NCBI GenBank assembly: GCA_964615515.1
Contig: CAZTOF010000740.1
Span: forward strand, 1-29,595
From: an uncultured Gemmatimonadaceae bacterium
GTDB lineage: Bacteria > Gemmatimonadota > Gemmatimonadetes > Longimicrobiales > Gaopeijiaceae
DNA length: 29,595 bases
Direction of reading: 5' to 3'
Of the stretch, positions 21,095-23,808 are shown piece after piece (the first letter of the stretch is position 1; every line of letters begins with the position of its first letter). The notes beneath the pieces were generated by a model, which worked only from the letters and a program-made list of their open reading frames with translations, searched no databases and was not told where the DNA came from. Both the position numbers and the translations under genes were made by a program.

Positions 21095-21614
21095 CCTCTC
21101 CCGGGTTTTCGCTCGTCTCCTGACCCTGCGCACGCTTCAGGGCCCGCTCCTCGAGCCAGAACGAAATCGCGAGGAGGACCGCTCCGCACGAGATCGCCAT
21201 GTCGGCGACGTTGAAGATCGGCCAGTCCATGAAGCCAAGGTCGACGGGGCCGATGAAGTCGACCACCCCTTTGTCCCAGCGAACGCGATCGATCAGGTTG
21301 CCCAGGGCCCCGGCAATCACCAGCACCAGGGACACGATGCGCACATGGTCGCGCCGGCCCGCACGCACGAGCAATACCACCATCAGCACGAGGGCGAGAA
21401 GGGCCACCGGAATGAAGACCCAGCGCGGGTCGTCGCCGATCGAGATGCCGAAGGCGGCGCCCCGGTTGAACGCCAGGGTGAGGGGCACGTAGCCACCCAG
21501 GAAGTCCGGGCGGGACGCATCCCACAACGCCACCTCGGCCCAGCGCTTGGTGAGGATGTCGGCGACAAGGATGATCGGCACGAGAGTACCGAGGAATGCC
21601 AGCTTTCGCTTCAC
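21063..21614 (-). CDS. lspA: Lipoprotein signal peptidase II
   Basis: ADILTK, FNRGAAFG, GALGNLIDR, VVDFI, FNVADMAI; GTG start at 21614 inferred; 32-bp convergent overlap with the CNNM gene. Confidence 0.95.
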   Translation of the reverse strand: MKRKLAFLGTLVPIILVADILTKRWAEVALWDASRPDFLGGYVPLTLAFNRGAAFGISIGDDPRWVFIPVALLALVLMVVLLVRAGRRDHVRIVSLVLVIAGALGNLIDRVRWDKGVVDFIGPVDLGFMDWPIFNVADMAISCGAVLLAISFWLEERALKRAQGQETSENPGEVMSNPEPLEG

Positions 21615-21707
21615 GGTTTCAGGGTTTCTCAAGGGCTCCGGCCGCGGTGGGCCGGGGCCGGTCATGGGTGACAGGCGGGCCGCCCGGTCACGGGAGGGAC
21701 CGGAAAA

Positions 21708-22060
21708 TGGAGGCGGCGGGAGTCGAACCCGCGTCCGCGAATGGGTCCTTCCAAGCTTCTACGTGCGTAGATCGCCGTTCGGTTTCGCTGCCGGCAGGGG
21801 TCGGCGAACCACCCCCGCCGGGCTAGCCACCAGTGTCTCATTCCCCGGTCCGGTGGCGCGAACCGGGGAACCAGCCCGAATCGTCGACGCTTCCGCGGCC
21901 CGCCTCGGGCGGGCGAACCGGGAAACGGGCTGCTCGTGTCTAAGCGGCCAGAGCCAAGTCAGAGTTGGCAGTTGTGTGATGTCCGGGAGGATTAACGAGG
22001 TCCCCGGACCTCGGCACGCAGCTTCGAGATTCCCAATCCCGTCGAAGCCGTGTCGCCCCC
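21708..22060 (-). ncRNA. ssrA: tmRNA (transfer-messenger RNA), 353 nt; tag (A)ANSDLALAA
   Basis: 5' GGGGGCGACACGGCUUCGAC; 3' GACGCGGGUUCGACUCCCGCCGCCUCCA with T-loop and G3-U acceptor pair; PK1 GAGGUCCGGGGACCUC; tag ORF GCC AAC TCT GAC TTG GCT CTG GCC GCT TAG at 21969-21940; CCA not encoded. Confidence 0.97.
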
Positions 22061-23146
22061 AGGTGTTCTTTCAATCAGCGGCCCGCCGGCGCGTGCCGGA
22101 TCCGATCCGGTCCCGCGCGTGGCACCAGTAACGATAAACCCGTCGTCCAGTCCTGAACACCCCCGTCCGGTGGCGTTCAGGTAGCTCTCCAGAACGCTGC
22201 GCACTTCGCCCAGGTTCCGAACCTGGAAGAGGCGCTGCCGAAGCCGCCGTCCCCCGGCCAGACCCTTCGTGTACCATCCGAGGTGTTTGCGGAACTCGCG
22301 CACCGCCTTGTCCGCGTCCTCTTCGAAGGCAACCGCGTTCTCGGCATGACGCACGCAGATATCGAAGCGGGTGCGGACGTCGGGTTCTCCCGGCACGGGC
22401 AGCCCGTCCAGGGCGGCGCGGGACTGGCGGAAGAGCCAGGGTGCGCCGTGGCACCCCCTGGCGATCATCACCCCGTCACACCCGGTCCGTTCCCGCATGC
22501 GGCGCGCGTCCGCGCCCGAACGCACGTCACCGTTCCCGATTACGGGGACGTCCAGCGCGCGAACCAGCGCCGCGATCTCCTCCCAGCGGGCCTGTCCCGA
22601 GTACATGTCGGCGCGCGTGCGGGGGTGCAGCGTCACCATGCGGGCGCCCGCATCCCGGCAGACTCGCCCGATCGCCACCGCGTCCCGGCTCTCTTCGTCG
22701 AATCCCGAGCGGATCTTCGTGGTCACCGGAAGGTGCGTGGCCGCGACCACGGCCCGGACGATCCGGTCCACGAGCCCCAGGTCGCGCAGGCAGCCGGATC
22801 CCCCGTTGCGCTTGACGACCTTCTTCACCGGGCACCCGAAGTTGATGTCGACGAAGTCCGGTGCGTACACCTCCGTCACGAGGGTGGCCGCGTCGGCCAT
22901 GGTGCCGGGGTCGGCGCCGAAGATCTGGATCCCGATCGGCCGCTCGTCGTCGTCGAAGCGAAGGTAGTCGGCGGTGCGGCCGCTGCCGCGCACGATCCCC
23001 TCCGCGCTCACGAACTCGGTGAGCACGACATCCGCGCCGAAGCTCCGGCAGAGCCTGCGGAACGGTGACTCGGAGACCCCCGCCTGCGGGGCCAGCAACA
23101 GGGGCGTGGAGGGGTTCCCCGGCACGGCGAAGGGCAGCGTCTTCAT
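21992..23146 (-). CDS. dusB: tRNA-dihydrouridine synthase (DusB family)
   Basis: LAPQAGV, IQIFG, DINFGCP (catalytic Cys), VTTKIRSG, TLHPRT, IGNGDV, GVMIARG, RKHLGWY; ATG at 23146; stop lies inside the tmRNA gene. Confidence 0.93.
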   Translation of the reverse strand: MKTLPFAVPGNPSTPLLLAPQAGVSESPFRRLCRSFGADVVLTEFVSAEGIVRGSGRTADYLRFDDDERPIGIQIFGADPGTMADAATLVTEVYAPDFVDINFGCPVKKVVKRNGGSGCLRDLGLVDRIVRAVVAATHLPVTTKIRSGFDEESRDAVAIGRVCRDAGARMVTLHPRTRADMYSGQARWEEIAALVRALDVPVIGNGDVRSGADARRMRERTGCDGVMIARGCHGAPWLFRQSRAALDGLPVPGEPDVRTRFDICVRHAENAVAFEEDADKAVREFRKHLGWYTKGLAGGRRLRQRLFQVRNLGEVRSVLESYLNATGRGCSGLDDGFIVTGATRGTGSDPARAGGPLIERTPGGDTASTGLGISKLRAEVRGPR

Positions 23147-23200
23147 GCTTTCAAGGTAACCGGACCGGGCGGGAGGGGCGGACCGGCGAACGGCGGTCGC

Positions 23201-23274
23201 GCGGCAACCGCGGTCTGGGCGGCAACCGCGGTCTGGCACCAACGGCAGTCCGGCCTCAACGGCAGTCAGTCTGG
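23201..23274. repeat. Tandem 18-bp repeat GCGGCAACCGCGGTCTGG x2 plus two degenerate units
   Basis: Exact copies at 23201-23218 and 23219-23236; CAACGGCAGTC at 23240-23250 and 23257-23267; lies in the divergent dusB/EIIA intergenic region. Confidence 0.85.
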
Positions 23275-23355
23275 CCTTTCAAACCCGTGCCGAATATCTT
23301 GCGGCGCCCGTTCAACCGTAAACCGCCACCGGGGCCCGCCGCCCGTTCGGTTGTC

Positions 23356-23808
23356 ATGCGCCTTCGAGACTTCTTCACCGGAAGCAGGGTCGAACTGAAC
23401 CTGCCGGGAGATTCCAGAGACGACGTTTTGAACGCGCTCCTCTCCCTCCTGGAACTGGACGCCCGCTCCCGGGCGACTCTCTCCCGCACCCTTCGCAGGC
23501 GTGAGAACCTCGGGTCGACCGGGATCGGAAGGGGCATCGCGATTCCTCATTGCCGTTCGCTCGTGGTCAGCCGACTGCACCTGGCCTACGGGCGGCATGT
23601 CCAGGGGGTGGATTTCCGGGCCATCGACAACCGGCCCGCCCATCACTTCTTCCTGATCGTCGCCCCGCCGCTGGAGGTCTCGGGCCAGTACCTGCCGGTG
23701 CTGGGCAAGGTGGCCCAGTTCGCGAAGGAGGCGGACGTGCCGCCGAGCCTTGCCGCGTTGAACTCCGCCGCCGAATTCCTCGACCTGCTGGACCGGAAGC
23801 GGATCTGA
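23356..23808 (+). CDS. PTS EIIA domain protein (fructose/mannitol/Ntr type), orphan
   Basis: RRENLGSTGIGRGIAIPHCR with the phospho-accepting His, GVDFRAIDNRPAHHFFLIVAP; 150 aa from the ATG at 23356. Confidence 0.9.
   Translation: MRLRDFFTGSRVELNLPGDSRDDVLNALLSLLELDARSRATLSRTLRRRENLGSTGIGRGIAIPHCRSLVVSRLHLAYGRHVQGVDFRAIDNRPAHHFFLIVAPPLEVSGQYLPVLGKVAQFAKEADVPPSLAALNSAAEFLDLLDRKRI

Follow-up and report, generated by a model that had tools for sequence, protein, structure and literature searches.

In Carsonella ruddii the stop codon of a coding sequence (CDS), smpB, lies within the ssrA gene for tmRNA (Mao et al. 2009; Hudson, Lau & Williams 2014, PMC4131195). The survey published in the latter paper gives 379 same-orientation overlaps between CDSs and tRNA or tmRNA genes, 250 of them with the CDS upstream, and a frequency of about 1 in 15,000 mRNAs. 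A selB ORF that contains or overlaps selC, the gene for tRNA-Sec, has been described in Alphaproteobacteria and other bacteria, together with the hypothesis that RNA processing represses the full-length protein (Mukai 2021, PMC8124441). Regulation by a programmed non-stop mRNA has been proven experimentally for arfA of E. coli, and kinA of B. subtilis is cited in the same source as an accidental non-stop case (PMC3989581). In E. coli secG and leuU are co-transcribed, and RNase P detaches the tRNA from the mRNA (PMC2241853). The locus described below adds a dusB gene whose reading frame, following the insertion of one base, ends inside the neighbouring ssrA.

The dusB-ssrA Locus

The window, that is, the whole stretch of 29,595 nt that was analysed, belongs to a metagenome-assembled genome (MAG) from sponge metagenomes (878 contigs, 85% complete, 5.9% contamination), the relatives of which carry the label Gemmatimonadota/Longimicrobiales. 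The genes considered here are all located on its minus strand:

21992..23146, minus strand: dusB ORF of this lineage, ATG at 23146-23144, TAA at 21994-21992, 384 aa
22187..23098, minus strand: Dus domain (FMN TIM-barrel plus helical part), PF01207, residues 17-320, 275.8 bits
21992..22060, minus strand: overlap of dusB with ssrA, 22 sense codons (GGDTASTGLGISKLRAEVRGPR) and the TAA, from the acceptor stem to PK1, inside the mature tmRNA
21708..22060, minus strand: tmRNA (ssrA), found by ARAGORN and Rfam RF00023
21063..21665, minus strand: lspA (signal peptidase II), with Peptidase_A8 at the equivalent place in relatives

The ATG at 23146 agrees with the MKTLPF N-terminus of related proteins, and the product is a full-length member of the TIGR00737 DusB equivalog family, with 344.8 bits over residues 15-325 against a cut-off of 293.3. 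The enzyme domain has a GC3 of 0.90, and dN/dS values of 0.10-0.18 against relatives indicate a gene under purifying selection rather than a decaying pseudogene, these values reflecting mostly the history before the insertion. The tmRNA is equally complete: its match to RF00023 reaches 162.9 bits (gathering score 47) and covers model positions 1-374 untruncated, and ARAGORN places the tag ORF at 21969-21940 (ANSDLALAA*). tmRNA boundaries were verified against the conserved GGGGGCGA start; a permuted "tmRNA*" proposed by ARAGORN in L021 proved spurious, and its 5' boundary for the tmRNA of L035 was wrong. The ATG of lspA (21665) lies 42 nt past the encoded CCA end of the tmRNA, and the gap between the two genes (21665-21708, minus strand) holds a hairpin, CCGGTC...GACCGG, without a U tract.

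The earlier note on this DNA had claimed that the dusB frame stays open for about 60 codons beyond the DusB fold and runs 69 nt into the mature tmRNA. Both statements hold: the frame continues for 59 codons past the TIGR00737 match, and its sole in-frame stop is the TAA in the PK1 region (CCUCGUUAAUCC), well inside the tmRNA at 22060-21708, the overlap being composed of 66 nt of sense codons and the stop. The overlapping codons begin with GGG GGC GAC ACG GCT TCG (GGDTAS) and give the peptide GGDTAS...RGPR. G1 of the tmRNA (22060) falls on a codon boundary of the dusB frame, the preceding codon being number 362 (CCT, 22063-22061). A long open frame alone is weak evidence in a genome of 68% GC; the overlap is still a fact of the sequence. 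The locus belongs to the class delimited by Hudson et al. 2014, with a Pfam-positive CDS upstream on the same strand, an in-frame stop within the RNA gene, and an overlap that is present in the DNA and is not an assembly error, as judged at contig level from the X1 and X3 contigs described below.

Two further differences of one base were observed near the tmRNA 5' end. In the PK1 loop (22002) the window tmRNA has an extra G (CCGGGGACC versus CC-GGGACC in the relatives L032-L034), which is absent from an RNA contig of a related strain (run X15), and in the leader (22063-22067) the spacer before G1 is one base longer than in L032-L034.

The Tail of dusB and a Candidate ssrA Promoter

Between the Dus domain and the tmRNA the dusB frame crosses a series of short sequence blocks:

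22061..22171, minus strand: DusB tail, codons 326-362 (37 codons), GC3 0.57 versus 0.90 in the enzyme domain
22154..22164, minus strand: GGGGGTGTTCA block with a putative -35 element (TGTTCA, 22159-22154), conserved genus-wide in the form GGGGT(T/G)(T/C)T
22128..22137, minus strand: TTATCGTTAC block with a candidate -10 element (TATCGT, 22136-22131), conserved across the genus
22089..22118, minus strand: GC-rich hairpin (GCGCG/CGCGC, CCGGATC/GATCCGG), presumed pre-tmRNA leader
22071..22077, minus strand: TGATTGA motif, the first TGA of which (22077-22075) is the dusB stop in relatives

From the Dus domain to the tmRNA the order is GGGGT(T/G)(T/C)T, about 20 nt, (C)TTATCGTTAC, the GC-rich hairpin and TGATTGA. 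The exact 10-mer TTATCGTTAC occurs three times in the genome, roughly one copy being expected from a rough calculation on base composition. One of the other copies (L059 302-311, minus strand, contig C525 of the genome G000) precedes a tRNA-Met gene (L059 226-299, minus strand) by 2 nt, and the third is at C364:64-73.

Across relatives the TTATCGTTA block is translated in all three phases, as GFIVTG, YRYD or LSLP, which together with the low GC3 of the tail argues that its blocks are not conserved for protein. Judged by phase and composition, the tail is not protein-like, and the constraint on it appears to act at the DNA or RNA level, without conservation at the protein level.

The tail most likely carries the ssrA promoter (TGTTCA and TATCGT, separated in the sequence by 17 nt), the leader hairpin and TGATTGA, an assignment based on conservation and position. 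The same -10 box is present 8-12 nt before G1 in the leaderless relatives L007, L025 and L026, and relatives that belong to different families of the order carry promoters of the ordinary TTGACC-17-TAACTT type 9-11 nt before G1. A scan of 21500-23400 with the sigma-70 consensus gave no promoter match; we know of no characterisation of Gemmatimonadota promoters. TTATCGTTAC may be the -10 box of stable-RNA promoters in the phylum.

The hairpin is found at the same place in every leader-bearing relative, with a sequence that differs clade by clade. Its stems are invariant among the eight closest sequences and thus show no covariation there, and leaders of different clades align too poorly for pairs to be counted. 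Leader folding z-scores against mononucleotide shuffles range from -2.2 to +0.1, modest values that are expected for a GC-rich sequence.

Termination of dusB in Relatives and the One-Base Insertion

The tmRNA gene lies 47-277 nt from the end of the Dus domain in 25 of the 28 sampled genomes of the genus. In 15 of the 28 dusB ends at the first TGA of (C)TGATTGA, 10-12 nt before G1 of the tmRNA, in eight it stops earlier, and in two (G011 and G017) the frame enters the tmRNA by 101 nt. Most relatives share the state of E. coli secG, the stop codon of which probably lies upstream of the RNase P cut; the window does not. Among the best 120 DusB cluster representatives, about 48 have a C-terminus of the type xGR, xDR or xRR, by which use of that TGA is recognised, and none of the 120 has a tmRNA-derived one. 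The phase of the promoter block varies by clade, and compensating spacing still brings the frame to the first TGA in four clades, which, the clades being few and mutually related, weakly suggests that termination at this codon is kept by selection.

In G011 and G017 (L025 and L026; oriented positions 2424-2628) there is no pre-tmRNA leader, the sequence TATCAT is found 12 nt before G1, and the dusB stop is a TGA formed out of frame within the tag-coding region.

A related motif, TG(A/T)TTGA(C/A)A, or its shorter core TTTGAC(A/C), ends 4-6 nt before G1 in most of the genus and several other genera of the family, just upstream of the tmRNA in L036, L040, L041, L043, L048, L049, L053 and L054; in the window (22066-22077, minus strand) the distance is 8 nt. 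It looks like a perfect -35 hexamer (TTGACA), yet it is too near G1 for that role; perhaps it serves in the leader as a recognition element for RNase P processing. Whether TGATTGA generally precedes substrates of RNase P was checked at the three further CTGATTGAMA sites of the genome, none of which lies beside a tRNA gene.

Of the three frames, two meet a TGA within TGATTGA; the window frame, CTG ATT GAA, misses both TGAs. It does so by way of a single additional base:

22121..22122, minus strand: insertion of 1 nt specific to the lineage, coding strand CC versus a single C in relatives

The inserted base moves dusB into the third frame, in which it runs to the TAA in PK1. A sequence without it comes from a strain about 96% identical (X4, from a third study), in which 315 nt show 11 substitutions and a single base is missing at 22122; its frame reads ...GFIVTGARAGPDPIRHAPAGR* and ends at the TGA at 22077-22075. 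The C-terminus of X4 is letter-identical to that of P0002, the closest database homologue (95% identical, 356 aa). The extra base is likewise absent from all seven close relatives whose DNA was available (L032, L033, L035 and L003-L006; alignments A1 and A2). Since X4 and all seven relatives lack the base, the window allele is, on this comparison, a real and derived 1-nt insertion.

The earlier note had called for a check of 22000-22250 for an indel; the insertion at 22122/22121 lies in that stretch and is matched by the X1 and X3 contigs. The off-frame TGA near 22178 to which it had drawn attention proved irrelevant, as in relatives the Leu codon context is identical and the frame extends far beyond it. 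Close relatives stop upstream of 22060, which speaks against its proposal of a dusB mRNA deprived of its stop codon by tmRNA maturation; sequences of the window lineage do not, which speaks for it.

Transcription and the Proposed Mechanism

No terminator-like site was found between dusB and ssrA in a scan of 21500-23400. In the one RNA set compared, the metatranscriptome X15, contigs of a related strain lie inside the tmRNA only, and one of them ends at 22060. In most of the genus, where dusB stops 10-12 nt before G1, a stop codon so close to G1 and past the leader hairpin, with no terminator-like site, suggests that dusB transcripts extend into ssrA. The distance of only 42 nt from the tmRNA 3' end to the start of lspA suggests that dusB, ssrA and lspA may be transcribed as a single unit, with the tmRNA excised from it.

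The mechanism that we propose starts from the packing of dusB and ssrA in the genus, so tight that the last 30-45 codons of dusB would overlie the ssrA promoter, the leader and TGATTGA. In the window lineage the extra C (22122/22121) put dusB in the sole frame that misses both TGAs, and so on to a chance TAA. Transcription would read through from dusB into ssrA, there being no room for a terminator, and RNase P would cut at G1. As this cut lies between two codons, the processed read-through transcript would be a dusB mRNA without a stop, ending with codon 362 (...IERTP). Ribosomes on this mRNA would be rescued by tmRNA-SmpB, and part of DusB would be ssrA-tagged. The remaining DusB, made from unprocessed precursor, would have a 22-residue tail ending in PK1, the predicted read-through peptide being TPGGDTASTGLGISK.

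If, instead, dusB transcripts ended upstream, at the leader hairpin or by collision of polymerases at the ssrA promoter, the overlap codons would never be translated. The stable GC-rich hairpin at 22118-22089, found in the same place in relatives, is compatible with such an early end; high-GC bacteria are able to terminate without a U tract, and ssrA promoters are very active. The position of the hairpin nevertheless makes this unlikely. It lies upstream of the conserved TGA, and ending there would leave dusB non-stop throughout the genus, which fits badly with the repeated in-frame restoration of that TGA; in addition, the presumed ssrA promoter precedes it, so that an efficient terminator at this place would block tmRNA synthesis.

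Read-through followed by RNase P cleavage can be extended into a broader reading, which we regard as tentative and, taken as a whole, doubtful. In the window lineage, and independently in G011 and G017, DusB would be made largely from RNase P-cut mRNA and would thus be a constitutive substrate of the tmRNA encoded on its own transcript. The level of DusB would track RNase P and trans-translation activity, and throughout the genus the ssrA promoter and leader would lie in the dusB tail, with the 3' end of dusB mRNA produced by tmRNA maturation.

A Tolerated or a Selected Overlap

The overlap is probably a tolerated, neutral or mildly costly by-product of tight packing and not a selected form of regulation. 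A similar layout has lasted in two other species, represented by G011 (three contigs, 99% complete) and G017, whose dusB genes share 88% nucleotide identity, with a dS of 0.42 and a dN/dS of 0.10. From these values a functional DusB has long coexisted with the overlap, and the layout is therefore tolerated. That a similar overlap has persisted in this second lineage, with purifying selection acting, could also be a sign that the arrangement is useful, beyond being tolerated.

The strongest form of the latter idea is an evolved feedback circuit, in which the overlap was selected, RNase P maturation makes the dusB mRNA non-stop, and the level of DusB is set inversely to trans-translation capacity, as with arfA in E. 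coli. The geometry fits, with the stop in the mature tmRNA, G1 on a codon boundary and no terminator-like site, and the independent lineage of G011 and G017 has kept an overlap of 101 nt while purifying selection acts on its dusB. There are precedents as well, in arfA (PMC3989581) and in a feedback proposed for smpB-ssrA of Carsonella (PMC4131195). The history of the locus points the other way and renders such a circuit very unlikely. The window overlap goes back to a single recent insertion, absent from the strain of about 96% identity and from all close relatives, so that a stop-less layout conserved among relatives, as in arfA, is not what is found here (the same strain and the seven close relatives are without it). 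A stop just before the tmRNA is conserved in most of the genus, and the tail is without coding-type constraint. To our knowledge no functional link between DusB and tmRNA has been described, and a search of the literature on dusB together with ssrA found nothing relevant. Of the non-stop circuit put forward in the earlier note, the stop inside the mature tmRNA and the lack of a terminator-like site are thus retained, and the evolved circuit is not, the insertion being lineage-specific.

Contig-Level Support for the Insertion

The insertion was checked on Logan contigs, produced by a different assembler, which were aligned to the window, and the evidence is accordingly at contig level. Over 21755-22450 the window is matched without a difference by a contig of the probable source run (X1, depth 42), and over 22061-22450, without differences or gaps, by one from an independent study (X3, depth 11.5). 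A search for further contigs of the lineage with a pattern across the insertion site gave no matches among metagenome contigs. The sole match among genome contigs, in L060, belongs to an unrelated short-chain dehydrogenase gene (VIVTGGTRGIG), and the resemblance of the shifted tail of the window, FIVTGATRGTG, to the glycine-rich dehydrogenase motif is due to chance.

An error of assembly or consensus as the origin of the extra base, with the true dusB stop at the TGA at 22077-22075, is highly improbable: the MAG is fragmented and incomplete, as its figures given above indicate, the base is missing from every relative, and single-base indels are the commonest type of error, yet two contigs from another assembler agree without a gap (X1 at depth 42 and X3 at depth 11.5) and the site is a 2-base run, not a long homopolymer. 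Runs represented by contigs only could conceal a minority allele or a systematic error common to them all, which is a point to be set against the preferred explanation of a real insertion with read-through into ssrA.

Significance

If read-through and RNase P cleavage are true, the locus is a natural experiment in which two near-identical strains are one base apart. One base would then decide between a normal and a non-stop mRNA for a housekeeping enzyme, rescued by the product of the downstream gene, and the pair would offer a clean test of the cost of constitutive non-stop expression. The most useful by-products of the analysis are the embedded candidate ssrA promoter and leader, and the natural pair of alleles. 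Through the former, a probable promoter box of stable RNAs (TTATCGTTAC) and a conserved leader of pre-tmRNA come into view for the first time in Gemmatimonadota. For annotation, caution is advisable with C-terminal "extensions" of proteins encoded beside tRNA-like genes in GC-rich genomes, which are possibly a translated promoter, leader or RNA gene.

Comparison with Known Systems

Carsonella smpB-ssrA resembles the window in having an upstream CDS on the same strand and in that tmRNA maturation should yield a non-stop mRNA; the overlap there is present in some strains only, and the C-terminal extension is an apparently random sequence (PMC4131195). The two differ in gene and host: in Carsonella, an endosymbiont with a tiny, AT-rich genome, the gene is smpB, which encodes the tmRNA partner, whereas here dusB is concerned, in a free-standing genome of about 4 Mb and 68% GC. 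In the present case, moreover, the cause is traceable to the insertion of a single base, and a candidate ssrA promoter and leader lie in the overlapped region as well.

With the overlaps surveyed by Hudson et al. the window shares a Pfam-positive CDS that runs into a downstream tRNA-like gene and from which non-stop mRNA would be expected at high frequency. The top families named in the available portion of that survey are FtsW with tRNA-Ile and SelB with tRNA-Sec, and dusB-ssrA is not mentioned there. The selB/selC overlap is conserved in many taxa and joins functionally coupled partners, whereas that of dusB is lineage-specific. In arfA, too, the stop is lost through RNA processing, the product is ssrA-tagged and degraded, and a hairpin lies within the 3' end of the ORF (PMC3989581); arfA differs in being conserved and shown experimentally, in its cleavage by RNase III, and in that the truncated protein is the active form, the dusB case being a prediction from sequence. 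The secG-leuU co-transcript is a likeness for the possible excision of tmRNA from a dusB-ssrA-lspA transcript.

That a CDS overlapping ssrA gives rise to a non-stop mRNA is thus a concept already published, for Carsonella (PMC4131195). What is new here against the published, rare class is a different gene, dusB, together with a traceable causal mutation and a matched wild-type strain.
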